The position numbers and the translations under genes were made by a program. From a virus (lineage: Duplodnaviria; Caudoviricetes), in the IMG/VR virus record IMGVR_UViG_3300033463_000070, positions 1 through 64,000 of that record: a stretch of DNA of 64,000 nucleotides; one strand, 5' to 3'. Positions within the stretch are counted from its first letter, which is position 1; each line of letters begins with the position of its first letter. The notes beneath the pieces are model-generated. The model did not search any database. It was not told where the DNA came from and saw nothing but the letters and a program-made list of their open reading frames with translations. Shown in pieces: positions 10,466 through 53,762 of the stretch.

Positions 10466-11878
10466 ATGGCTCCAACATTATTAGGGAATATTAAAACATT
10501 TATTAATCAATGCTTGCCAGATTATATAATTAATTCATGGTCAAATACAGCGCAAACAGGGAAAGCTCCATCTGAAAATTTAGTGAAAACAGCATTAAAT
10601 AATAAATCAGATGTAGGACATACACATAATTATGCATCCATTAGTGATATAGATGTAGAAATAGAAGCCTATCTTGATGCCATTATAGACGCTCTCGAAG
10701 AAGCCGAAATAATTGGTGGAATTGGAGGAAATAGTATCAATATATCAACACAATGGAGCACTCCTTTAAGTGATAGCAAAGTTCCTTCAGAAAAATTAGT
10801 AAAAGAATTATTAGATACCAAAGCAAATAGCTCATCAATACCAACAAAAACTTCAGATTTAACAAATGACAGTGGATTTTTAACAAGCCATCAAGATATA
10901 AGTGGCAAAGCAGATAAAACAGGATACAATGCAAATAAAAATTTAGTAACAAATAATGATGGTACAATAACTACCGAAAATAAACCAACTATTCCGACAA
11001 AAACCTCAGATTTAACAAACGATAGCGGATTTTTGACAAGTCATCAAGATATAAGTGGCAAATTAAATATTTCTCAAACAAGTTACAAAGGAAAAAATGT
11101 TGTAGTTGATAGTAGTAGTGGAAATATTACTTTTGAAAATAAACCAACTATTCCGACAAAAACTTCAGATTTAACAAATGACAGTGGATATGTAACTTCA
11201 AGTGGTAGTACTGTATCATATTCGCAAACTCAATCATCAGGAACCAATACATATACTATTGGTAAGATTACAATTAATGGAACAGAAACAACATTATATG
11301 GAAAAGATACAAATACTACTTACACAATTCCAAGTGCGTCAACATCAACACCAGCAAAAGATACAGCAAGTGGAACATATGGTAGTGGAACCGCTTATGC
11401 AAGAGCTAATCATGCGCATCCAAAAAGTAGTATATATGCCGAAGCAGAACATAAACATGATACAGGAGATATTAATGGATTGATAAACCTAATTTATCCA
11501 GTTGGTTCTATATACATGAGTGTAATTAGTACTAGTCCAGCTACATTGTTTGGTGGTACTTGGGTACAATTAAAAGATAGATTTTTATTAGGCGCAGGAG
11601 ATACATATAGTAATGGTGGAACTGGTGGGGCAGCAACACATACCTTAACAACAAATGAGATGCCATCACATACACATAATGCTTGGACAAAAGCTTTAGA
11701 TGGCTGGGCTATATGGGGTCAAAAAAATGGAAACATGTTTACTTCATCATCATACACTTGGGAAGGAAGTAATGTTAATGTATCTGATATAAATTCACTT
11801 ACAAATACTGGTAGTGGAGCTGCTCACAATAACATGCCTCCTTATTTAGTTGTTTATATGTGGAAACGAACAGAGTGA
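10466..11878 (+). CDS. Tail fibre with repeats and C-terminal baseplate/collar (gp10-C-like) domain
   Basis: SD GGAGG; three IPTKTSDLTNDSG repeats; C-terminal YPVGSIYMS...LFGGTW...RFLLGAG...GGAATHTLTTNEMPSHTH...HNNMPPYLVVYMWKRT. Confidence 0.8.
   Translation: MAPTLLGNIKTFINQCLPDYIINSWSNTAQTGKAPSENLVKTALNNKSDVGHTHNYASISDIDVEIEAYLDAIIDALEEAEIIGGIGGNSINISTQWSTPLSDSKVPSEKLVKELLDTKANSSSIPTKTSDLTNDSGFLTSHQDISGKADKTGYNANKNLVTNNDGTITTENKPTIPTKTSDLTNDSGFLTSHQDISGKLNISQTSYKGKNVVVDSSSGNITFENKPTIPTKTSDLTNDSGYVTSSGSTVSYSQTQSSGTNTYTIGKITINGTETTLYGKDTNTTYTIPSASTSTPAKDTASGTYGSGTAYARANHAHPKSSIYAEAEHKHDTGDINGLINLIYPVGSIYMSVISTSPATLFGGTWVQLKDRFLLGAGDTYSNGGTGGAATHTLTTNEMPSHTHNAWTKALDGWAIWGQKNGNMFTSSSYTWEGSNVNVSDINSLTNTGSGAAHNNMPPYLVVYMWKRTE
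10838..11190 (+). repeat. Three coding repeats IPTKTSDLTNDSG(FLTSHQDISGK)
   Basis: Copies start at 10838, 10991 and 11150. The first two are ~72-bp near-identical copies with synonymous differences; the third is partial. Confidence 0.9.
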
Positions 11879-11882
11879 TTAA

Positions 11883-13151
11883 ATGACAAAATATACAGAT
11901 AAAGCAACAGAATTTGTACAAACTTTAATAGGAGCTCATGATAGCGAAGAAAGTGATATAACTATTTCAACATCATGGGGAAGTCCTTTAAGTGATGAAA
12001 AAGTTGTATCCGAAAAATTAATAAAAGACACAATTGATACAAAAGCAAACAGTAGTGGATATACTGCGAGTCAAAATTTGGTAACAAATAGCAGTGGGGA
12101 TATCGCTACAGAAAGTAAGCCAATAATACCTCAACCTTCAACCACAGCAACAGATATCAAAATGAATGGAACTCAAAGCGCTGGAGGTTTAAATACTACT
12201 ACATATGCTAAAGCAGACCATGTACATCCAAGTGATACAAATAAACAAGATTTACTTGTTAGTGGAACTAATATTCAAACAATTAACGGACAATCAATAT
12301 TAAGAAGTGGAGATTTATCAATAGGAACAGAGGTTGGAACATTTAGTGATTTAAATGAATTAATAAATCTTTCAACATTAAACAGATATACACTTGTTTT
12401 AGATAAAGATTATAAATATGACTCAACTACTGATTCATCTTTAAGTAGTGGAATTGAAATAACACAAGATATTATTATCATTGGAAATGGACACATAATT
12501 GATGGAAATAACTATGCAAGAGCATTTATAGATACAATTGGTTATACTTGGGAATTAAATGATTTAAAAATACAAAATTGTACAAGTAATAATGATAATA
12601 AATATGGTTATAATGTTGGTGGAGCAATCTATGCAGACCAATATACCCATGTTAACATAAACAACACAACATTCACACAAAACAACGCAGAGGATGGTGG
12701 AGCAATCTTCGCAGATAACTCACAGATAAACATAAACAATACAAACATAAACAACAACAACGCAAACAATGGTCAAGGTGGAGCAATCTGCACATGGAAC
12801 TCACAGATAAACATAAACAATACAAACATAACCCACAACAACGCAACAAATAATGGTGGAGCAATCTTCGCATACGATAACTCACAGATAAACATAACAC
12901 AATCAATAATAAAAAATAATACTGCAACAAATTATGCAAATATTTATTGTAATTCTGCTACAACAGTATATAATTGTGATATTGATAATATTGTTACTAC
13001 TTGTTATAATGTAACAAATTATAATTATATTAATGAAACTAATATTGCTAATAATTTAACAACAACCACAAGTGGAAAAGTATTAGATGCACGACAAGGT
13101 AAAGCATTGGCAGATTTAATAGGTGATGCGATAACATATATAAATCAATGA
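11883..13151 (+). CDS. Fibre/adhesin hybrid: fibre modules plus methanogen adhesin-like beta-helix (GGAI/FxxN) repeats
   Basis: Shares WGSPLSDEKVVSEKLIK and YAKADHVHP modules with the previous ORF; GTFSDLNELIN...LVLDKDY adhesin start motif; four GGAI repeats. Confidence 0.75.
   Translation: MTKYTDKATEFVQTLIGAHDSEESDITISTSWGSPLSDEKVVSEKLIKDTIDTKANSSGYTASQNLVTNSSGDIATESKPIIPQPSTTATDIKMNGTQSAGGLNTTTYAKADHVHPSDTNKQDLLVSGTNIQTINGQSILRSGDLSIGTEVGTFSDLNELINLSTLNRYTLVLDKDYKYDSTTDSSLSSGIEITQDIIIIGNGHIIDGNNYARAFIDTIGYTWELNDLKIQNCTSNNDNKYGYNVGGAIYADQYTHVNINNTTFTQNNAEDGGAIFADNSQININNTNINNNNANNGQGGAICTWNSQININNTNITHNNATNNGGAIFAYDNSQINITQSIIKNNTATNYANIYCNSATTVYNCDIDNIVTTCYNVTNYNYINETNIANNLTTTTSGKVLDARQGKALADLIGDAITYINQ
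12696..12900 (+). repeat. Three ~78-81 bp tandem GGAI-repeat units, AAC/ACA-rich
   Basis: ggtggagcaatc starts at 12696, 12777 and 12855; aactcacagataaacataa recurs in each unit. Confidence 0.9.
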
Positions 13152-44741: not shown

Positions 44742-45404
44742 TTATTGATTATTTTTTGTACATAATTCAGTAAACATTTTGTCTAATTCATTCATATCTT
44801 TTTCAGAAATTTTTGAAAATCTTAAAGTTGATAATTTTGATTCAATGTTATCTAAATAAACTTTTAATTTTATCATATAATTTTTATCATCTTCATTTAA
44901 AATAAATGGTTCATCAATTATTTTACACATTGTATCAAATACTTCAATCTCCTGAAGTAAAGATTTAATATTTGCAATACTAACATTATCATTATGTACT
45001 TGTGATATTTTTCTTTTTATCATTGCAATAAATGATATCATTGGTGGGTGTTCTTGTGCGAAAAACAATATATCATTAAAATCTTTATCCATTATAACTG
45101 CATCTGTCAAAAATTTATAATATGATGGTGACCCAAAATAATATGCAAAACCTAATAAAGCTCCTAATTCAATAAACATAAATTCATGTCCATCTATGTT
45201 TTTTGATATGTCTGAGTCAGGTCTTGTTAAAAAAGTTAAGTAATTATGCAAGGAATGAATAAATATCCCGCATACATTACCATCTTTTTCGTAGATACTA
45301 AGTATTCTAATATTGTTTTGTTCTTCAAGTGTTTGTTTTGCTATTTGTAATATTTCATCATCAATTGGTCTATTCGGATTCTTGATAATCTCCGTCATAC
45401 TCAT
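44742..45404 (-). CDS. Degenerate YcgL/NrdC.11-like nucleotidyltransferase homologue lacking the catalytic loop
   Basis: LEEQNNIRILSIYE-KDG-NVCGIFIHSLHNYL...ELGALL...GSP follows the family pattern, but the GS...DSDYD segment is missing. Start uncertain (45398, 45404 or 45416). Confidence 0.4.
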   Translation of the reverse strand: MSMTEIIKNPNRPIDDEILQIAKQTLEEQNNIRILSIYEKDGNVCGIFIHSLHNYLTFLTRPDSDISKNIDGHEFMFIELGALLGFAYYFGSPSYYKFLTDAVIMDKDFNDILFFAQEHPPMISFIAMIKRKISQVHNDNVSIANIKSLLQEIEVFDTMCKIIDEPFILNEDDKNYMIKLKVYLDNIESKLSTLRFSKISEKDMNELDKMFTELCTKNNQ

Positions 45405-45876
45405 TAACAGCACCATCCACTCTAATGTCTACTAACTGTGCGAATCGTTCTCCTTTTGTTATTACAAAATCTACTGGAAGATAGTTCATAATTAAGAAAG
45501 AAAGCGAACCGAAATAGCCATTATCACCAACTGCAGTCATTACATGCGTTCCGCAACGCAATAAAGTTGAACGAGGTCTATAAAATTGTAAAGAATCTTT
45601 GTCTATTTTTATTTTATTTTGTACAGTAGCAATGTAGGGAACATTAGGTCGCAGACTGTAAACATTTTTTATCTGCCCATTAACCGATAATGCGTTCATT
45701 ACTAATTCACTTCTATCTGGAATAACTTTTAATCCATCTATAATTCCATAAAATTTATTATTTCCTACATCAAATTCTTCTATTTTTCCTAAACGCAAAT
45801 CAAGTCCACCGGGCTGAAAACACTCGTCATCAAATTCTAGATATCTTTTTCTTAATATTTTTTCGCCATTAATCAT
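45370..45876 (-). CDS. dut: Trimeric dUTPase, archaeal dCTP-deaminase-like type
   Basis: QPGGLDLRL, PRSTLLR, VGDNGYFG, GERFAQL and C-terminal YDGDYQ; the deaminase Glu after the G-x-x-x-L motif is absent. Confidence 0.8.
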   Translation of the reverse strand: MINGEKILRKRYLEFDDECFQPGGLDLRLGKIEEFDVGNNKFYGIIDGLKVIPDRSELVMNALSVNGQIKNVYSLRPNVPYIATVQNKIKIDKDSLQFYRPRSTLLRCGTHVMTAVGDNGYFGSLSFLIMNYLPVDFVITKGERFAQLVDIRVDGAVNEYDGDYQESE

Positions 45877-46532
45877 TCTTCTTCCTCCGCTACTTTTTTA
45901 AATTCTTTATAAATTTCTTTCGCAAATACAACAGCTGTTCTTTTTAAAGCTAATAAATGCAAATGCTTTCTATTACTTTTTGGATGTTTGTATTGATATT
46001 TACTTTTATAATCTTCATATAATTGACTGTAACGATAATCATCACGTATCAATTTAACAGTACAACGCATAATAGTTTTATTTAATCCTTCACAAAAATC
46101 AATAGGGTCTGTTTTTTTATTGGCTACTTTCTTTCCATTAATATTTCTTTTAACTTTATAATATTTATTACTACTATTTCTTATAACAGGAGCAAGACCC
46201 GCATATGATATGAAATGCTTACGATTTTTAAATCTTTTAATATCTCCTATTTCGACTATTAATTCTGCCGCATCGTATAAATTTATTGATGGAATTTCTT
46301 TCAAAAATCCCATATATTCATTTGAAAAGTATAATATATTTTGTATTTCATCTCGTAATTTTTGCAATGGTTCATCAAATGGTTTAATACTTATATCTTC
46401 AAGTCTTTTTGACCTTGATTCATTTATATTTCCAAGCATTTTTAATCGATGTTTATTACTTCTGGATGCTTGAAAAACAGTTTTATTTGTATTAAATAAT
46501 ATAGTTAAAACTTTTCTTTCGTTTGTATCCAT
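45873..46532 (-). CDS. IS110-Tnp/Nop-domain protein without a RuvC domain (TasA-like)
   Basis: Coiled coil, then FLKEIPSINLYDAAELIVEIGDIKRFKNRKHFISYAGLAP, then YSQLYEDYKSKY..HP...KHLHLLALKRTAVVF; no DEDD RuvC region. Confidence 0.65.
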   Translation of the reverse strand: MDTNERKVLTILFNTNKTVFQASRSNKHRLKMLGNINESRSKRLEDISIKPFDEPLQKLRDEIQNILYFSNEYMGFLKEIPSINLYDAAELIVEIGDIKRFKNRKHFISYAGLAPVIRNSSNKYYKVKRNINGKKVANKKTDPIDFCEGLNKTIMRCTVKLIRDDYRYSQLYEDYKSKYQYKHPKSNRKHLHLLALKRTAVVFAKEIYKEFKKVAEEEE

Positions 46533-46534
46533 AA

Positions 46535-47149
46535 CTATAACCTCAATATATTTTTCTTTGCTTTCTTGCTTAATCGAGGAACTTCATCAAGTTCTTCTTC
46601 AGTTGCATTTAACACAGCACTTGGTGTTCCAAAATGTTTAAGCAATTTTTTAGCTGTTTGTTTTCCCACTCCATCTATACCAATTAATACATTTTCAAAT
46701 GCATTAGATGTTTTGGGTCTAACATTAGGAACTTCAATAGGTTTATCTGCTTTTTCTACTGCATTAATAATAGCAAGAATACATTCAACAAAATGAACAA
46801 AATTTTCAACCCAAAATACTGGAACATGATATCGAATTGTTAATGATGCGATATTTGCATATCGTTGAGTTAATGTTTGTTTGGAATATTTAGAATTTAA
46901 TTTACCATCATTATAACATATTATATATGAATACGGATATTTTTGTTTCATTTTAATTGCTTCTTCTTGTATTCTACGATTGGTGCACGAAGATATAAAA
47001 TCTTGTCTCGTTTTTACTTCAATAGCAATTTTATTATTAATAATAATATCTCCAGTTTCTAATCGCTCAACAGTTACATCAAAATATTGTTCTAACCGTT
47101 TAATTCGACGTGGGTCTTCTCTATCATCAACAGTGATTTTTATCATCAT
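46535..47149 (-). CDS. ERCC4/XPF-Mus81 family structure-specific nuclease with HhH motifs
   Basis: VDDRE, LETGD, IEVKTRQDF and HhH GIDGVGKQTAKKLLKHFG; SD GGAGG. Confidence 0.9.
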   Translation of the reverse strand: MMIKITVDDREDPRRIKRLEQYFDVTVERLETGDIIINNKIAIEVKTRQDFISSCTNRRIQEEAIKMKQKYPYSYIICYNDGKLNSKYSKQTLTQRYANIASLTIRYHVPVFWVENFVHFVECILAIINAVEKADKPIEVPNVRPKTSNAFENVLIGIDGVGKQTAKKLLKHFGTPSAVLNATEEELDEVPRLSKKAKKNILRL

Positions 47150-47158
47150 ATTTTCCTC

Positions 47159-48097
47159 CTATATATATAAATTTTGACCTTTACATTCGTTTGAACAACA
47201 TATACCATTTGCTTTTTGAGTAGGACAGGAAGAAAATAATATATCATCTCTTGAAAAAAGATACTCTAATTGTCCTTCTTCTTCTATACAATGATAGAAT
47301 TTGTTTGATGATAATGATTGTTCTAATATATGTTCTACTTCTTCCTCAGAATAACCATCATCACGTAAATAACATATTAATTCACGACGTTCATGGTATC
47401 CTAAATCAGGAGTAGATAATAAACATTTTACACAAGGAGGAAATTCGGTACTAAAATCAATTTTTCCTATCGTTTCTGCTTTTAATGGTGATATGATTTG
47501 CTTTGTTTCGTCAAAAGGTTGTAGTGATAATCTTGTTTTTCCATGTATATAGTCACAATTATTGTTATTCTTTTTTGCCAATTTACATATATCATTATAT
47601 GATAGTTCAAATAACTGTTCATATGTAATTGGAATACAATACAAACCAGTTTTTAAATTCTTAGTACCTATTATCCTTGATACCCTTCGTAGGTCACCTA
47701 TAACAGCTGGGTCTGACGTAGATTGTGTTCTCTGATGTAAATCTTTGACAAATTTTTTAATTGCTAATTTAGGTTGCTGCAAACTTTCCTCCGGTTTAGT
47801 CATTATAAAAATATGAAAGCCTCGACCACTAAACCGAATAAAGAACAAATAATCCTTGTTATTTAAGTACTCTGCCACCCTGCGTACATCTTCATAGAAC
47901 TTCAAATCTTTATCGTAATCAAAATCCAAAAATACTCTATCTACATAAGCATTTTGAGCATTAGGAATATCTTTATAATCATACACAGATACATACATAT
48001 TTTTTTTACCATTATATATCTGAATAAATTTATTAATCTCTTCTTTGTCTTGAACTGTTATTCTTATTTTTGGGATAAATAATTCTTTAACTAACAT
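47159..48097 (-). CDS. Archaeo-eukaryotic primase: PriS catalytic domain fused to a PriL-like Fe-S C-terminal domain
   Basis: FLDFD (motif I), FSGRGFH (II), DPAVIGD..RVSRIIGT (III); then FPPC...HERR...SC-x8-CC-x3-C. Confidence 0.85.
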   Translation of the reverse strand: MLVKELFIPKIRITVQDKEEINKFIQIYNGKKNMYVSVYDYKDIPNAQNAYVDRVFLDFDYDKDLKFYEDVRRVAEYLNNKDYLFFIRFSGRGFHIFIMTKPEESLQQPKLAIKKFVKDLHQRTQSTSDPAVIGDLRRVSRIIGTKNLKTGLYCIPITYEQLFELSYNDICKLAKKNNNNCDYIHGKTRLSLQPFDETKQIISPLKAETIGKIDFSTEFPPCVKCLLSTPDLGYHERRELICYLRDDGYSEEEVEHILEQSLSSNKFYHCIEEEGQLEYLFSRDDILFSSCPTQKANGICCSNECKGQNLYI

Positions 48098-48494
48098 CTT
48101 CATCAATCTCCAACAAATCTATATTATGTTGGAATTCAGCATCTAACACCATTTCAGCTAATTTAACTGCAAATTGACAACCCGGGTCCATTGATAAACC
48201 CGAATCTGTATCAATTTCGTAATACGGCCATTCTAAACATGCATCAAATCGTGTAGCATATTCATCACATGTTTTTCCGTTAAAATATTTACAATTTATT
48301 GTTTTACAACATTCTCCACATTGCTTACAAAACTCTGGATAGTCTTGTACCATTTCAAAAGTAAAATAATTTTCTGAAGCACGCATTAATACTGTATCAA
48401 TTATATCAGCAATTAAATCATCTTCCAATTGAGGATATTTCATTGTGTATTTGTCTATCATTTTTTTTATAAATTTTAAATGATTAATTGGCAT
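48087..48494 (-). CDS. YkgJ-family (CxxCxxCC) metal-cluster protein
   Basis: FCKQCGECC...C...C..Y.TRFDACLEWP; TAATG coupling with the upstream gene. Confidence 0.8.
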   Translation of the reverse strand: MPINHLKFIKKMIDKYTMKYPQLEDDLIADIIDTVLMRASENYFTFEMVQDYPEFCKQCGECCKTINCKYFNGKTCDEYATRFDACLEWPYYEIDTDSGLSMDPGCQFAVKLAEMVLDAEFQHNIDLLEIDEDVS

Positions 48495-49210
48495 TAGATA
48501 CCCCCCATATCCTTACACATTTCTTGATACCCGCAGTAACTGCAAAGATACTGATGTTCAGGATATAAATTATTTTCTTCAACTTCTTTTCTTATAAAAT
48601 CAAGCAAATTAATAGCCGCCTGTTCATCTTTTTTTGTAACAAAAGAACCTTTTTCTTGTTCTTCACAAAAATTAGTAAACTTCATTCCACCATCTTTAGT
48701 AAAAACTATGCCTGCTGATATAACATTTTTATCTGGATATTTGTAATTAATAAGCATTTTGTAATAAGTCAACTCAAGAAGATATTTTTTAATTGGATTT
48801 GTTTTACTTGTTTTGTAATCAATGATAATTAAGTCACCATCTTCATTTTCTAATACTAAATCAGCTAACCCACTAAAATTATGTTCTGTATCATGAATAT
48901 ATTCTTCACTACTAAACACATGATAAATCTCATTTTTATCAAGAAAAGCTTCTTCAAAAAAATGTGCAAGATGATATAAATGTGTTTTTAAATCAAATTC
49001 TGTATCCATTGATGTATATATATTTAATAATTGTTGGTAAAAATCATCATCCATATTAAATTCTTGAACAAACCTTTCAGCAATTTCATGAACTTCTGTC
49101 CCACGTCGCATATACTCATTCGGTTCTTGCTTTATTTTATCGATATAACTTAACATAAATTCACGTCTGCATTTAAGAAAGGAATTAACTGCGGATTTTG
49201 AAAGCTTCAT
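48494..49210 (-). CDS. PD-(D/E)xK RecB/Cas4-like exonuclease
   Basis: LSKSAVNSFLKC, RGTEVH, GLAD, IIDYKT, C-terminal CSYCGYQEMC. Confidence 0.85.
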   Translation of the reverse strand: MKLSKSAVNSFLKCRREFMLSYIDKIKQEPNEYMRRGTEVHEIAERFVQEFNMDDDFYQQLLNIYTSMDTEFDLKTHLYHLAHFFEEAFLDKNEIYHVFSSEEYIHDTEHNFSGLADLVLENEDGDLIIIDYKTSKTNPIKKYLLELTYYKMLINYKYPDKNVISAGIVFTKDGGMKFTNFCEEQEKGSFVTKKDEQAAINLLDFIRKEVEENNLYPEHQYLCSYCGYQEMCKDMGGI

Positions 49211-49211
49211 T

Positions 49212-49823
49212 TTATTCATCTCCTTTCCAGTGAGCATCTAGTCCAACATAATGAAATCTTCCCGGTTTGATTCCTAATTTGTCTGCTACATATAATTGTA
49301 CTGTCATAAGAGCATACATATTTGATGGAAATGCATATCTTATATCATTTGACCTAAATATAACTGTCATTTCTAGTTGTCTTTGATATATAGAACATTT
49401 TATCATAATTAAGCAAGGAATATCTTCAAGATATGTATCTGTCTGTGGGTCATATGTTATTGCGATAGCTCTACGAGTATTTTCATCTTCTTTAAGTCTA
49501 TCAATCATAACTTGATATTGGTCTACATCAAAATATTCTATTAGTCTATTCCCATATGTATATACAAAATCATGTATATTTCCATCTAATAATTGGTCAG
49601 CATATTTTTGTAAACCCTCATTATTAAAAAAGGTATTTTTTGGTACTTTGACCGCTTTTGCATATCCAAAATCATTAATATGGTCTTCAAAATGTAATGC
49701 TACAAAAGGAATTTGATAAACAATATCTCCTCTTTGGTCAATTACTTTCTTACCTTGTGTCGTTATTATGTAATATAAATAATTAAATGCATCATCTATA
49801 TTATCATAAACTTTATTACTCAA
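49212..49823 (-). CDS. thyA: Thymidylate synthase, archaeal-type ThyA
   Basis: YTYGNRL, TRRA, catalytic IPCL, FRSND and FPSN. Confidence 0.88.
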   Translation of the reverse strand: MSNKVYDNIDDAFNYLYYIITTQGKKVIDQRGDIVYQIPFVALHFEDHINDFGYAKAVKVPKNTFFNNEGLQKYADQLLDGNIHDFVYTYGNRLIEYFDVDQYQVMIDRLKEDENTRRAIAITYDPQTDTYLEDIPCLIMIKCSIYQRQLEMTVIFRSNDIRYAFPSNMYALMTVQLYVADKLGIKPGRFHYVGLDAHWKGDE

Positions 49824-50290
49824 TTTATTGCCTCCTCTATTAATTTATGGATTATATTGATAGTGAACCATTCTTCAAAATAACACCCTCCAATATAATA
49901 TCCGTCATAATATAATCTAAATGGTCTATTTCTATTTTGATTTTTGTGACTTATATAATGTGTCTTTTTACTATCCCAAAATTTATATTTTCCATTATTT
50001 TTTCTTTTAGGATATTGTCCAATTCCCCCTTTAGTGAAATTAAACTTAGGATTATAATACTTTATAAATAATCGTTCATAAGCATCTAATTCGTCCTTAG
50101 AACATTCCACTTCAATTTGAATAGAATATCGTAAAGGGTCTGATTGTAATACCCTATTAATTGGTTGAGTATTTTTAGAGCTTTTAATTAAATGTTGTCT
50201 ATGTCTTTTATATATATCTTTGCTTTGTCCTATGTATACAACTTTAAAGTCATTTTTTATATCTCTGTAACTATAAATTCCGCATGGCAC
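49820..50290 (-). CDS. GIY-YIG homing endonuclease (short)
   Basis: CGIY...YIGQS...R...E..FI...NPKFN..KGG. Confidence 0.85.
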   Translation of the reverse strand: MPCGIYSYRDIKNDFKVVYIGQSKDIYKRHRQHLIKSSKNTQPINRVLQSDPLRYSIQIEVECSKDELDAYERLFIKYYNPKFNFTKGGIGQYPKRKNNGKYKFWDSKKTHYISHKNQNRNRPFRLYYDGYYIGGCYFEEWFTINIIHKLIEEAIN

Positions 50291-50321
50291 TATATCAATC
50301 TTTAAATGTCATTATGGGATA

Positions 50322-52814
50322 TTAAATATATGTTTGTTTAACTGCATTTATAAATGTATCGCTATTTTTACTTGGTTTATATTCTATAAACATTCCTGCC
50401 ACAATTCCCTCTGGCAAAATATTATAACCACTTTTACAAGTGATTTTACTACAAGGACCCTCTGGCTCCATTAACGATAATCTTAAACATTTATTTCCTT
50501 TCTTACTTATAAAGTAAGTTGCTTGCTTTACTAATGCTTTACGAGTATATTTCTTACTTGCTAGCATACTTGTTATTAATTGATATGATGTTCCATTAAT
50601 GTAAGCTTCTTCTGCCATAAATGGGTCATGAACACTATAATCAATCAAGAAATGCATATATAATTTGCCATCATAACAATGACATTTTGTAATAATAACA
50701 TGTCCTGTCTCGAAATAATCACCATACTTTGCTACAATAGCTTCAGAACATGATATACTTTGATTAACATCTTTATTCTGTAAATGAAGAATACTATATC
50801 CTTGTTGATTATCTACGTCAATTATCACACCTTTAACATACATTTCTTCATTATCTTCATCAGTTGCATTAAGTAAAGGAGTTAACATATTATCATAAGG
50901 TGTTTTTACACTATCAATATATTCTTCTCTAATAGAAAATGATATTGCAGAGAATTCTTTGTCTAATATTTCTTTTTTGGTGTATATTCGTTCTTCGTAA
51001 CCTTTTTCTCCTTTCTTTAAGAAATTAAGCAACTCGCCACGCTTATCTATGATGTCCTGCATATCTGTAAGACCAAAATCAAATGCACCTGCACCAATTA
51101 AATTTTCTTTACATCGTTTATTACACTCTCTTGGTGCCATTCTCTGACAAAAGTTATCGAATGATTCAAAATCACCATTAGCTCTTTCTTTTAAGATAGC
51201 TGTGGATACTTTATCAGATATTGTATTAATAATATTAAGACCGATATAAATTTTATTATCTACAATAGTTGTTTCGGCTTCACTTAAATTAATATCTGGT
51301 GAACATAATTCTGCATCACTATCTTTTATCATATTTAGTATCTCTATCCTTTTTTCTTCTTCGCTATTCTTTACATTTTGAAGCATAGCAACAGCAAACT
51401 CTAAAGGATAGTAAGTTTTTAACCAAGCAGATTGATAAGCAAGAACTGCATATCCACATGCATGTGCCCTGTTAAATGAATAATCAGATGATTTTTCAAT
51501 ATTATCCCATAATTTCTTAGCAACTTCTTCATCTACATTATTATCTATACAACCATTAATAAATTTAGGTTTAAATATATCAAATGCTTCTTTTTTCTTT
51601 TTAGAAATTGCTTTACGAAGATTATCTGTTTCAACATCACTCATACCTGCAAGGTCACGAGCAACTGCCATAGCATCTTCTTGGAAAATCATAAGTCCTT
51701 GAGTACTACCTAATGTATCTTTTAATCTTTCATCAAGATATTCAGGCTCTTTACGACCAAATTTATAATCAGCATATAATTTATCCATTCCTGAATTCCT
51801 AGCTCCCGGTCTTATTAATGATACTAGAGCCATTAACTCATTAAAATTCTCAGGCTGTACCATTTTGACTCCAGCTCTTCCCGCAGCTTTTTCTAATTGA
51901 AATAGCCCCATGGGATTTTTACAAATAGATTCGTAAACTTTAGGGTCGTCAAATTCATATGGTAAATTTACATCATCTTTAATAAGATTTAAACAATCAC
52001 GTTGAACATCAAGAACTTTAATACCTAATGTATCGTTTTTTAAAAATCCAAGTGCATTACATTCGCTTCCATTGTTGGATATAATTGGTTTACCACTTAC
52101 ACTTATAACAGAACAATATTTATCCATTATATCATCTAAGATAATCATAGCACCAGCATGAACACCATAGTTTTTAGTTAAACCTGCTAATGGGTCAATA
52201 TAATCTCTTACTTGCGGGTTTTTATCTAAAAATTCCATTATTTTTTTATTATTGTGATAATCATCTTCTTTATTAGATAAAAATGAAGTAACTTTATTAA
52301 CTTGTGCGAAGTCTAAACCTAATCGTGCAGATAAATCTTTAATTAATACTTTTGGTGTAAAATTAACTTTATTTAAAACCTGACCACATCTATCTTCACC
52401 AAAATGTTCTCTAATCAAATTCAATACATCGTCTCTACCATCAGAACTAACATCTGTATCTATATCTGGTAAACTTCTCTGTATCCTTGTTTTATTAAGA
52501 AATCTAGCAAAAGATAAATTATATGGTTTTGGGTCTATCTTTGTGATATTAAGAAAGTAACAAACTACGGAAGCAAGACAACTACCTCTTGCTGGGCCTC
52601 TGAATATATCTGCTTCATCTATTAATGCACATATATATGCTGTATTCAAAAAGAAATCTTCTAAATCAGCTCCAAGAATAACATCAAGTTCTTCTTCAAG
52701 TCTATCATGATACCAAGAATCATCATAGCAACCTTTAACCTTCATACCTTTGATACACATATCTTTAATATATTTTTTATTATCAATAGATTTAGGTTTA
52801 AAATCTCTAATCAT
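50322..52814 (-). CDS. dnaE: Family C DNA polymerase (DnaE) palm/thumb/fingers/OB portion
   Basis: GPARGS, PDIDTD, HAGAM, KNDTLG, FQLE, LIRPG, IFQED, YSFNRAHACGY, WLKTYYP, PDINLS; SD GAGGTGAG. Confidence 0.93.
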   Translation of the reverse strand: MIRDFKPKSIDNKKYIKDMCIKGMKVKGCYDDSWYHDRLEEELDVILGADLEDFFLNTAYICALIDEADIFRGPARGSCLASVVCYFLNITKIDPKPYNLSFARFLNKTRIQRSLPDIDTDVSSDGRDDVLNLIREHFGEDRCGQVLNKVNFTPKVLIKDLSARLGLDFAQVNKVTSFLSNKEDDYHNNKKIMEFLDKNPQVRDYIDPLAGLTKNYGVHAGAMIILDDIMDKYCSVISVSGKPIISNNGSECNALGFLKNDTLGIKVLDVQRDCLNLIKDDVNLPYEFDDPKVYESICKNPMGLFQLEKAAGRAGVKMVQPENFNELMALVSLIRPGARNSGMDKLYADYKFGRKEPEYLDERLKDTLGSTQGLMIFQEDAMAVARDLAGMSDVETDNLRKAISKKKKEAFDIFKPKFINGCIDNNVDEEVAKKLWDNIEKSSDYSFNRAHACGYAVLAYQSAWLKTYYPLEFAVAMLQNVKNSEEEKRIEILNMIKDSDAELCSPDINLSEAETTIVDNKIYIGLNIINTISDKVSTAILKERANGDFESFDNFCQRMAPRECNKRCKENLIGAGAFDFGLTDMQDIIDKRGELLNFLKKGEKGYEERIYTKKEILDKEFSAISFSIREEYIDSVKTPYDNMLTPLLNATDEDNEEMYVKGVIIDVDNQQGYSILHLQNKDVNQSISCSEAIVAKYGDYFETGHVIITKCHCYDGKLYMHFLIDYSVHDPFMAEEAYINGTSYQLITSMLASKKYTRKALVKQATYFISKKGNKCLRLSLMEPEGPCSKITCKSGYNILPEGIVAGMFIEYKPSKNSDTFINAVKQTYI

Positions 52815-52823
52815 TCACTCACC

Positions 52824-53762
52824 TCATACTACTTTCTTAAGAAAAATTTTTTCAAAATCCAAATGCTTATCAAATTTAGGAATCACCCTATCATATTCTG
52901 GCATTTCAAAATAACATTTTTCAGCTATTTTATGAGTATTATCAATACACAATTGTATTATATCATCATCTACTCCTGACATTCTTCCAAATTTATAACA
53001 CAACTCTGTATTACCTAACACATTACTTTCAAGTGTATCTGATATTTCTGATTCAGCTTTTTTCCAATTAATGCTTTGTAATTTTTTTCTTAATATCCTA
53101 CCCGCATCAGTAAGAACATGACTATCAAAAGTATTAATTAACCATTTGCAATCAGTATCTTCATATAATTTTATAAGTTTTTCATTTAATATGTTCTGAG
53201 GATATAATCCTTTGTCATTTTGCCAAGTTGGATGATATTGAAGCTCTATTGCAACATTATCTTTGCCAAATTTATCAAGCAATTTATTAAGAAAGGAATA
53301 AGCTATGTCATCTTGTCCTTTTTCGAAGTTTTGACATATATATGATAATGCACAAGCAGTTGATACAAAAATTCCTTCTGTATTTTCAAATAAAATATCA
53401 TGAGGAAGTAAAGGTTTATAATAAAAATGGTCAGTAACAGATAATCTTTGCATTTTACGAATATTAGTTGCTCCTACATCATTCATAGCCAAACAAACTA
53501 AATGATAACGATTTCTGTCTTGTGGCTTTTCTAAAGTAGGTTTGCAATAAAATTCGTTTCCAAAAATTGGTTTAACATTTGATTGCTTACATTCCTGCTG
53601 TAGAGCATACCAATTAGCTACTGTACCATGGTCAGTAATTGCAATATACTCTTGACCATAATCTTCTACTTGTTTAACTAAATCCGGAATTTTGATGACA
53701 GAATCACCAATACTAGCATCAGTATGTAAATGAAGATTTACGAAATTTTTTGTATTTGTCAT
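52824..53762 (-). CDS. Stand-alone PHP domain of DnaE (probable 3'-5' proofreading exonuclease)
   Basis: HLHTD, GDS, ITDHG, GNEFY, YHL, TAC, IELQ, FDSH; ATG 53762 with SD GGAG. Confidence 0.9.
   Translation of the reverse strand: MTNTKNFVNLHLHTDASIGDSVIKIPDLVKQVEDYGQEYIAITDHGTVANWYALQQECKQSNVKPIFGNEFYCKPTLEKPQDRNRYHLVCLAMNDVGATNIRKMQRLSVTDHFYYKPLLPHDILFENTEGIFVSTACALSYICQNFEKGQDDIAYSFLNKLLDKFGKDNVAIELQYHPTWQNDKGLYPQNILNEKLIKLYEDTDCKWLINTFDSHVLTDAGRILRKKLQSINWKKAESEISDTLESNVLGNTELCYKFGRMSGVDDDIIQLCIDNTHKIAEKCYFEMPEYDRVIPKFDKHLDFEKIFLKKVV

Follow-up and report, generated by a model that had tools for sequence, protein, structure and literature searches.

A domesticated, array-less TasA-type protein encoded beside an XPF/ERCC4 nuclease in the replication module of PhiF1-like archaeal viruses

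We found that a large virus infecting gut methane-producing archaea encodes a functional, conserved and nuclease-free protein that consists of a coiled coil and a Nop domain, the architecture of TasA, and that its gene belongs, in single copy, to the fixed core of the DnaE-type replication/recombination module in PhiF1-like viruses of Methanobacteriales. From the Tas-like fold and tree position, the synteny, the selection acting on the gene and the absence of an array, we therefore conclude that this is a domesticated, array-less TasA-type protein and not an insertion sequence. We tentatively favour a role for it alongside the XPF nuclease encoded immediately upstream.

The gene and its place in the replication module

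The window, by which we mean the whole stretch of 64,000 nucleotides that was analysed, belongs to an 84.7-kb record that is only 58% complete. The record is densely coding, with approximately 2.7 kb of intergenic DNA, and apparent 'gaps' of 973 nt and 3 kb turned out to be open reading frames, either small or very long. The TasA-like gene (45873..46532, minus strand) codes for 219 amino acids. Immediately upstream is the gene for a 204-residue XPF/ERCC4 nuclease of the short archaeal type with a C-terminal HhH2 region (46535..47149, minus strand), and the junction between the two (46530..46544, minus strand) is made up of a GAGG at 46541-46544, the TAG stop codon at 46535-46537, a 2-nt spacer and the ATG at 46530-46532. 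The GAGG sits within the final ERCC4 codons, which is where the original prediction had located the Shine-Dalgarno sequence. At the other end the TGA stop overlaps the ATG of a dCTP deaminase/dUTPase-like gene (168 residues; 45370..45876, minus strand; PF22769, 1e-16; PF00692, 1.1e-07) in an ATGA at 45873..45876 (minus strand), so that non-coding flanks are absent (junctions of 2 nt and -4 nt). The overlap that had been described is therefore present in the record, but adjacency to dUTPase is not conserved among relatives, where gaps of up to 1.3 kb are seen. The upstream remainder of the module (47159..52814, minus strand) contains, from Pfam and PHROG matches, primase-like, Cys-rich orf135, PD-(D/E)XK exonuclease, thymidylate-synthase-like, GIY-YIG and DnaE polymerase genes, in an order that is repeated in 12 related loci including that of PhiF1. 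What had earlier been called a 'Cas4-like' nuclease is the ordinary PD-(D/E)XK exonuclease of this module.

Homologues of the TasA-like protein number 108 and are 218-237 residues long, with length kept down to 30% identity and 28 columns of the family alignment invariant. Values of dN/dS for the gene were 0.08-0.5, indicating purifying selection. The record has one copy, as does each of three further genomes of 96% completeness or more, and the position of the gene is likewise fixed down to 30% identity. The coupling to ERCC4 was borne out when neighbourhoods were compared: ERCC4 lies upstream in 12/12 related loci, including PhiF1 (ORF54/ORF53), despite insertions elsewhere in the module. 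The junction is 5-8 nt in all eight close relatives (8/8), and four distant relatives have a small HTH gene between the two genes; PhiF1 is one of these, the HTH gene being an unannotated ORF there. PhiF1 itself is a cultured Methanobacterium virus (MK994522, 74 kb, complete), the host Methanothermobacter is also cultured, and its module runs DnaE, PD-(D/E)XK, ORF55, ERCC4 (ORF54), ORF53 and NrdD. ORF53 (QGH71209, 'transposase 20 superfamily-like protein') occupies the same module and is related at the level of an orthologue; it differs in being very divergent, was found only by a broader profile (E 8e-7), and has the HTH ORF between it and ERCC4. A search of IMG/VR with P0128 and P0154, both basal relatives, found no related loci, and neither PhiF1 nor related accessions were found in the text portion of the supplement to the Science TIGR-Tas paper.

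Fold and kinship with Tas and IS110 proteins

The sole Pfam match of the 219-residue protein was to PF02371 (Transposase_20; E 3.1e-12, residues 77-135, above the cut-off). Neither PF01548 (RuvC-like DEDD) nor HNH gave a match, in line with the predicted lack of both nuclease domains, whereas true IS110 controls matched PF01548 as well as PF02371. PF01798 (Nop) and the N-terminal fibrillarin-binding domain also gave no Pfam match. The AlphaFold2 model (pLDDT 92.1, pTM 0.84) contains the coiled coil and Tnp/Nop core that the original prediction had proposed. Helices 3-32 and 38-68 form an antiparallel coiled-coil hairpin (codons 3-68; 46329..46526, minus strand), which corresponds to the dimerisation element of Tas, Nop5 and IS110 proteins and aligns with the coiled coils of TasR, TasH and ISCro4 in fold searches and of array-linked Tas proteins in hhalign. 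The protein begins just two residues ahead of this coiled coil and thus has no N-terminal nuclease domain, as in TasA. When the model was compared with known structures, the best match was TasR (9mty_B; VIA Z 20.1, rmsd 2.3 over 188 residues, 20% identity), followed by TasH (16.4), the IS110 protein ISCro4 (15.7) and, as distant fold matches only, Nop5 (8.4 for 1nt2_B and 7.3 for 3icx). Foldseek also returned 9mty as the best match (E 2.4e-7).

Codons 115-147 (46092..46190, minus strand; model strands 115-118, 124-126 and 134-137, pLDDT 75-85) form a basic insertion, a beta-hairpin located where Tas proteins have the 'wedge loop', with a K+R fraction of 0.26 compared with 0.18 for the whole protein. 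Distant relatives and sister subclades vary in this region, lack it or have a Zn-ribbon there. Its start coincides with the position equivalent to the IS110 serine nucleophile, a residue that follows GLxP and is near-invariant in our IS110 comparison set; in the family, serine occupies this column in 2/43 homologues and is absent from 41/43, with an extra serine present as an insertion in 1/43.

The C-terminal helices (codons 170-219; 45876..46025, minus strand; model helices 166-182 and 188-218) carry a Tas-like HP..Y..(H/R)..A.KK..F motif, and hhalign pairs this stretch of the family with the 'HP..Y..H..A.RK..K.F' terminal helix of Tas proteins. The Y..HP....H.H..A signature noted originally was upheld in part: Y172, P184, A195, K197 and F203 are invariant or nearly so in 43 homologues, as is K198 (near-invariant), but Y186 (S in the query protein), H190 (R in 38/43) and H192 (E in 14/43) are not conserved. 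The signature does not mark an RNA-processing loop. The extended 27-residue C-terminal loop of dual-repeat Tas proteins, with its Y/H processing dyad, is absent; the loop between the last two helices is approximately 5 residues in the model, hhalign places a 17-residue gap here relative to dual-repeat Tas, and the short CTD5 loop is similar to that of stem-loop-type Tas proteins.

Profile comparisons pointed in two directions. When the PDB was searched with the family profile, TasR 9MTY was the only match (E 5e-4), and hhalign of the family against array-linked Tas proteins gave E 2.5e-11 over 192 columns that cover the coiled coil and the C-terminal motif. The core of the query's own subclade was nearer to IS110 than to Tas by profile-profile score (E 1.3e-19 for IS110), and its HMM scores were also higher for IS110; the family core motif SYAGLAP resembles IS110 SYAGLVP. 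For distant syntenic members the Tas HMM outscored the IS110 HMM (91 vs 40 bits for P0121 and 38 vs 13 for PhiF1 ORF53), and in a tree of 45 rows obtained by quick search array-linked Tas proteins are the sister group of the methanogen-virus clade, with IS110 set apart (SH-aLRT 85-94). On balance we place the family on the Tas side of the superfamily that Tas, IS110 and Nop5 proteins make up, though the subclade core of the query scores nearer IS110.

TIGR-Tas systems include nuclease-less TasA proteins (Faure et al., 2025, PMC12045711; Xu et al., 2026, bioRxiv 10.64898/2026.09.09.750476), and it is these that the present protein resembles most in layout: both are solo coiled-coil and Nop proteins without an N-terminal nuclease, both are viral, and both have the Tas-like C-terminal helix motif. 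They differ in that our family has no TIGR array in four genomes, is encoded by a core replication-module gene and not at an array-flanked accessory locus, has a replaced G-x-G hairpin motif and has a subclade core nearer IS110. A known case of an operonic partner for a TasA-type protein is TasParB (PMC12045711; bioRxiv 10.64898/2026.09.09.750476); the partner gene here is XPF/ERCC4. TasR of a Thermoproteota archaeon (9MTY), the best structural match, has an N-terminal RuvC domain and a dual-repeat TIGR array, whereas in the virus a separate XPF gene takes the upstream position. The array-less compact TasR branch (Xu et al., 2026) is also of the Tas family, found in dense viral genomes with neither space for an array nor sign of one, but by its description it has RuvC and lacks the coiled coil, the reverse of what is seen here. 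The IS110 recombinases (IS621, 8WT6/8WT9; ISCro4, 9T56) share PF02371, SYAGL(A/V)P and the coiled coil with the family, which however lacks DEDD/RuvC, the conserved serine and a bridge-RNA-bearing non-coding end, is not mobile and is single-copy.

The XPF neighbour as a candidate partner

The neighbouring nuclease matched Pfam ERCC4 (6.8e-15), HHH_5 (1.8e-10) and also HHH_2, and aligned full-length with Aeropyrum pernix XPF (2bhn/2bgw, E 4.6e-10). The GD...E-x-K...D residues are aligned, with EVK in place of ERK, and to judge from sequence the enzyme looks catalytically intact.

The account that we consider the best available, although we would put it a little below an even chance, is that the TasA-like protein serves as a non-catalytic nucleic-acid-recognition partner of XPF on viral replication or recombination intermediates. 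The protein would dimerise via the coiled coil and provide recognition for the co-translated nuclease, with the Nop domain and two basic elements, the terminal helix and the wedge insertion, as the parts that bind nucleic acid. The ERCC4 and TasA-like pair could then be seen as a two-gene counterpart of the nuclease, coiled coil and Nop order of TasR and TasH. Since the entire replication module is syntenic, being neighbours does little by itself to establish such a partnership. The methanogen viruses Drs3, vir249 and vir080 have ERCC4 without a Tas-like gene, and hence XPF does not need the Tas-like protein. No fused ERCC4-Tas or longer forms were found in the homologue search, which is itself weak evidence.

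The search for guide RNA and the alternative readings

Four genomes were scanned for guides: the 84.7-kb record, PhiF1 (74 kb) and two 100%-complete relatives of 145 and 152 kb (G001 and G002). We used TRF, periodicity scans at 16-21 and 28-60, chains of box C-N9-box D, and TIGRFinder-like and all-motif stem-loop scans. As a positive control the dual-repeat scan detected the arrays in L058, L083, L110 and L113. No TIGR array of the dual-repeat or stem-loop kind was found above shuffles in the four genomes, the stem-loop scan being one without a positive control. The reported absence of a TIGR or bridge-RNA array from the window thus holds and extends to the rest of the record: TRF gave only short AT-rich or coding repeats in the 64-kb window and the remaining 20 kb, and no bridge-RNA-bearing non-coding end was seen at the TasA-like gene. 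Box C/D motif pairs were not enriched over shuffles in any of the four genomes, Rfam gave no match in the record, and no archaeal box C/D sRNA pattern was found there, box C/D genes being absent from PhiF1 and the two other relatives as well. There was no excess RNA structure in the gene or its wedge region (z -0.26 and -0.01), and conserved intergenic DNA shared with relatives was limited to short promoter-like matches. Two candidate arrays were rejected. The 45-nt repeats near the Tas-like gene of G002 are coding, specifying YYQDNKEKIKE repeat proteins, and those at 3.6-6.8 kb of PhiF1 are perfect iteron-like GTATTACTGAGG repeats without variable spacers, which stand among repeated promoter/small-ORF units.

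These results bear on the rather unlikely reading that the protein is a canonical RNA-guided TasA repressor, which would use undetected tigRNAs to silence host or competitor genes or to time viral ones, independently of XPF. TasA proteins repress transcription under RNA guidance, and tigRNAs of the stem-loop kind can occupy flexible or intragenic positions (bioRxiv 10.64898/2026.09.09.750476); 20,096 tas loci are known but only 6,685 arrays have been found, and the present family conserves a basic terminal helix like that of Tas proteins. Guides might be hidden in scattered or intragenic single stem-loops, which the stem-loop scan without positive control would have had to detect, in unusual box C/D motifs, or in the missing 42% or so of the record. 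Against this, both 100%-complete relatives and the complete PhiF1 genome are array-less too, coding is dense, neither box C/D pairs nor excess structure in the gene were found, and the replication-module position is fixed over deep divergence, unlike known array-flanked tas loci.

A Tas descendant that has given up RNA altogether, and acts as a guide-free DNA-binding or bending factor with a structural or regulatory role in replication, recombination or packaging unrelated to XPF, would fit the lack of a guide in four genomes, and to this reading too we attach only modest probability. In this family INLYDA takes the place of the HhH-like G-I-G motif seen in IS110 and Tas proteins, sister subclades do without the wedge region or have a Zn-ribbon in its stead, and TasR bends DNA by approximately 180 degrees (PMC12045711). 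However, the basic motif (A195, K197, K198, F203) is retained in the C-terminal helix, which in Tas structures is in contact with box C/D RNA, and a factor unconnected with XPF would not be expected from the strict adjacency to ERCC4 despite insertions elsewhere in the module.

If the protein is RNA-guided, it would be by a few non-arrayed, non-canonical or host-supplied RNAs and not by an array. The latest survey leaves open an alternative guide source for array-less Tas lineages (Xu et al., 2026, bioRxiv 10.64898/2026.09.09.750476). We regard it as doubtful, more so than the two preceding readings, that a TasA-like dimer carrying a non-arrayed or host guide, such as a box C/D-like sRNA of the host or a transcript made from the viral genome as it replicates, positions XPF/ERCC4 on specific DNA sites during replication or recombination as a split RNA-guided nuclease.

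It is very unlikely that the protein, which resembles Nop5 but lacks the N-terminal domain for fibrillarin binding, takes over the box C/D sRNPs of the host by binding host C/D sRNAs or forming heterodimers with host Nop5, with host sRNAs re-used as guides or rRNA/tRNA methylation blocked as the outcome. The archaeal host does have box C/D sRNPs, no virus-encoded guide came up in the Rfam and C/D-pattern scans, and the fold is common to Nop5 (Z 8.4 and 7.3), but Tas and IS110 proteins are far nearer (Z 16-20), PF01798 is not matched, and RNA binding by Tas proteins needs no L7Ae.

Finally, that the gene is a functionless, decaying or truncated IS110 transposase fragment, for which the database name of its relatives ('IS110 family transposase'), the similarity of SYAGLAP to SYAGLVP and the hhalign score against IS110 might speak, is refuted by the length kept in upwards of 100 homologues, even at 30% identity, the fixed syntenic slot in single copy, the dN/dS of 0.08-0.5, the full fold at pLDDT 92, the lack of non-coding ends and the absence of the serine from 41/43 homologues.

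TIGR-Tas systems were described only in 2025, and their natural targets, the origin of their guides and the role of TasA are still open. The family reported here is a clean, deep and array-less TasA-type lineage, whose gene belongs to the core of a replication module, locked to an XPF nuclease gene, and is not an accessory locus. Its members are systematically mis-annotated as 'IS110 family transposase' where viral contigs have been binned into bacterial MAGs, and recognising the family sets this right. Were the split nuclease to prove true, XPF would be the third nuclease type for Tas effectors after RuvC and HNH, and the guide source would be the first that is independent of an array. The orthologue in the cultured pair of PhiF1 and Methanothermobacter makes RIP-seq and biochemistry feasible.

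The Tas-like protein and its neighbours

The three minus-strand open reading frames of the original prediction were all recovered by ORF calling in the window, which spans the opening 64 kb of the IMG/VR virus record (84,699 bp, GC ~28%, CheckV completeness 58%): ERCC4 at 46535-47149 (204 aa), the Tas-like gene at 45873-46532 (219 aa) and dUTPase at 45370-45876 (168 aa). Pfam assigned ERCC4 and helix-hairpin-helix domains to the first and a dCTP-deaminase/dUTPase domain to the last, and the 219-aa protein matched PF02371 (Transposase_20, IS110 C-terminal domain) alone, E 3.1e-12, in keeping with the predicted absence of RuvC and HNH; PHROGs was consistent with all three calls. The Shine-Dalgarno sequence and stop/start overlap that had been proposed could also be read, as GAGG in the final ERCC4 codons followed by TAG, 2 nt and ATG, and as ATGA where the Tas-like stop overlaps the dUTPase start. 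Over its full length the ERCC4 protein is related to the short XPF of Aeropyrum pernix (nuclease plus HhH2), with which its metal-binding/catalytic motif aligns, EVK replacing ERK.

An AlphaFold2 model of the Tas-like protein built from 43 homologues (alignment A1; pLDDT 92.1, pTM 0.84) opens with an antiparallel hairpin of helices (residues 3-68), continues through a helical domain that is followed by a basic beta-hairpin insertion or wedge (residues 115-147; K+R fraction 0.26), and closes with two long C-terminal helices. Against ~48,000 PDB representatives it aligned best with TasR (9mty_B; Z 20.1, rmsd 2.3 over 188 residues; structure from Faure et al., 2025, PMC12045711), followed by TasH (21kl_A, Z 16.4), the IS110 recombinase ISCro4 (9t56_A, Z 15.7) and Nop5 (1nt2_B, Z 8.4), the remaining matches covering the coiled coil only. 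Foldseek gave the same ranking, and among all PDB sequences the family profile matched only TasR 9MTY (E 5e-4), so that the anticipated coiled coil and Nop/Tnp core are borne out. Elements of Tas dimerisation and guide/target contact are present as the coiled coil, the basic wedge and a basic terminal helix in which A195, K197, K198 and F203 are (near-)invariant. Three basal relatives (P0121, P0128 and P0154; columns 125-190 of alignment A4) carry a Zn-ribbon-like Cys-rich insertion (CxxC...CxC) at the wedge position and one subclade of ~190-aa proteins (P0112-P0129) is missing the wedge altogether, making this the most plastic part of the family.

An array-linked Tas set was assembled from IMG/VR loci with five CCA-N9-TG units in a row, of which those with an adjacent ORF matching the A1 profile were kept (L113, L058, L083 and L110). 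A1 aligned with these Tas proteins over 192 columns (E 2.5e-11), including the coiled coil and the C-terminal HP..Y..H..A.RK..K.F helix, but with ten true IS110 transposases over 113 columns of the core only (E 1.3e-19). We conclude that the query subclade has an IS110-like core (SYAGLAP) with Tas-like architecture and C-terminus. The C-terminal signature noted originally thus stands as a helix, but at the Y/H dyad positions Tyr is replaced by Ser in the 219-aa protein and the His positions are variable in A1. Dual-repeat Tas proteins have a long loop with the Y/H RNA-processing dyad; by the model and the A1 columns it is absent here, the loop being ~5 residues. In distant members of the syntenic family a Tas HMM clearly outscored an IS110 HMM (P0121, 91 versus 40 bits; P0111, 64 versus 30; ORF53 of the cultured Methanobacterium virus PhiF1, 38 versus 13). 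A quick-search maximum-likelihood tree (45 rows, 222 columns, IS110 outgroup, stem-loop-class Tas left out) placed the methanogen-virus clade as sister to array-linked Tas, both apart from IS110, with moderate support (SH-aLRT 85-94). The serine nucleophile hardly varies across the IS110 set; in A1 the equivalent column is Ser in only two of the 43 sequences.

Conservation in a viral replication module

It had been proposed that the gene is not a mobile IS, and its conservation agrees. We found 108 homologues, each 218-237 aa long with PF02371 as its sole Pfam domain, on contigs of up to 154 kb, and the gene occurs once in the record and once in each of three further genomes at least 96% complete. 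In 12 of 12 related loci the module order is DnaE (split into PHP and polymerase), PD-(D/E)XK exonuclease, Cys-rich ORF, primase-like, ERCC4, Tas-like, (dUTPase) and NrdD. Homologues are publicly named 'IS110 family transposase', 'transposase' or 'hypothetical protein'. dN/dS was 0.08 in the closest informative pair and 0.13-0.5 in others, where dS is saturated. Taken together, these results let a decaying IS110 remnant be dismissed almost entirely.

In all eight closer loci (50-66% identity) 5-8 nt separate the end of ERCC4 from the Tas-like start. Insertions of 0.6-1.3 kb in these loci part primase from ERCC4 and the Tas-like gene from dUTPase. In the four distant loci (~30% identity, including PhiF1) one small gene separates ERCC4 from Tas-like (L012:5628-5848, unannotated at 53108-53323 of the PhiF1 record; L007:5740-6000; L010:5752-6000; L011:5723-6004); none lies there in the clade of the window. 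We rejected it as an RNA gene, as it encodes a conserved HTH protein of 73-93 aa with weak HTH_23/HTH_28-like matches and the motif G.TL.EIA...GR(K/P)(K/R)G. The neighbourhood check suggested originally therefore gave ERCC4 ahead of Tas-like throughout, directly or across this gene.

Elsewhere in the module, a 135-aa Cys-rich protein (48087-48494, minus strand; CKQCGECCK...C...C; best Pfam match sub-threshold, E 0.013) is encoded directly between the exonuclease and primase-like genes in eight close loci, and also in distant L011, where neither of those genes gave a match. A GIY-YIG homing-endonuclease-like gene (49820-50290, minus strand) interrupts the module between DnaE and the thymidylate-synthase-like gene; in relatives, DNA methylases or other inserts sit at different points of the module.

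In the phage database every relative of the ERCC4 protein comes from a virus of Methanobacteriales, which, with a histone gene in related locus L004, supports a methanogen-virus assignment. The one match among 185,579 species genomes lay on a 147-kb contig, itself a viral genome, that had been placed in a 'Clostridia' MAG. Near-complete genomes of the lineage (139-147 kb contigs) occur in Clostridia, Bacilli and Paceibacterota MAGs (L165, JAGAIU010000011.1; P0057; P0110), probably as a binning artefact, and such mis-binned genomes distort host and taxon statistics.

Search for a guide RNA

Published TIGR-array rules were re-implemented and run on the 84.7-kb record and on the complete genomes of PhiF1 (74 kb) and two relatives, G001 (152 kb) and G002 (145 kb, with terminal repeats), both 100% complete. 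These four densely coding genomes yielded neither dual-repeat chains nor periodic arrays, which extends the lack of an array reported for the window to the rest of the record and to three complete genomes; the chain scan recovered 7-14-unit arrays in all four control loci (L113, L058, L083 and L110). Stem-loop units, scanned without a positive control, were as frequent as in shuffled sequence. Rfam gave no match in the window or in 64001-83999 (the record except its last 700 bases), and folding of the Tas-like gene revealed no RNA structure above expectation. Across the four genomes box C/box D pairs were not enriched and the archaeal C/D sRNA pattern had no match. The protein might hijack host C/D sRNPs, but Nop5 is a far more distant structural match than Tas and IS110 proteins, and we consider this very improbable.

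Two repeat regions were rejected as arrays. A 45-nt periodicity over ~1.9 kb of G002 (60.05-62.5 kb; L028:50-2497) is coding: three tandem paralogous genes adjoining NrdD encode proteins with CxxC...C at the N-terminus, numerous 15-aa YYQDNKEKIKE repeats and, at the C-terminus, a conserved domain containing HH...N that may be HNH-like. In PhiF1 (3.6-6.8 kb; L014:3600-6800) the repeats are perfect, iteron-like GTATTACTGAGG units with periods of 37, 32 and 34 nt. Between them lie four or more promoter-like blocks (CGAAACATTTATATA...) of nearly identical sequence, and a small acidic ORF comes after each block; this could be an origin or early regulatory region. Long coding tandem repeats at 10844-11196 and 12654-12932, in the fibre/adhesin gene block of the window, have periods of 159 and 81 nt and recall the adhesin-like proteins of methanogens; those with the 81-nt period encode GGAI-type repeats.

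Proposed relation to the XPF nuclease

It is well supported that the 219-aa protein is a domesticated, nuclease-free, array-less Tas-family member of TasA architecture. We do not class the family among TIGR-Tas systems, since our searches failed to turn up the array that defines them. The PhiF1 gene itself was known before as a transposase-like annotation ('transposase 20 superfamily-like protein', ORF53); in the literature searched, which does not include the unpublished TIGRSafari catalogue, we found no description of its Tas-type identity, array-less state or fixed XPF coupling.

An ordinary TasA repressor whose guides went undetected is one explanation. TasA proteins are RNA-guided repressors, and an alternative guide source for array-less Tas branches has been left open (Xu et al., 2026, bioRxiv 10.64898/2026.09.09.750476). 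Set beside the scans of four genomes, we regard this as unlikely. We are equally doubtful of a guide-free DNA-binding factor with no relation to XPF. The Tas-like gene was not found in Drs3, vir249 and vir080, three ERCC4-bearing phage-database relatives, indicating that XPF is independent of the Tas-like gene and that the latter is restricted to the DnaE-module lineage; within that lineage the gene order is fixed. The nuclease-coiled coil-Nop domain order of TasR and TasH is mirrored here by the gene order, ERCC4 then Tas-like, and TasA is known to share an operon with a different partner, TasParB. We lean, tentatively, towards a Tas-like protein that would be the non-catalytic nucleic-acid-recognition partner of the XPF nuclease, the pair being at work in viral replication or recombination.
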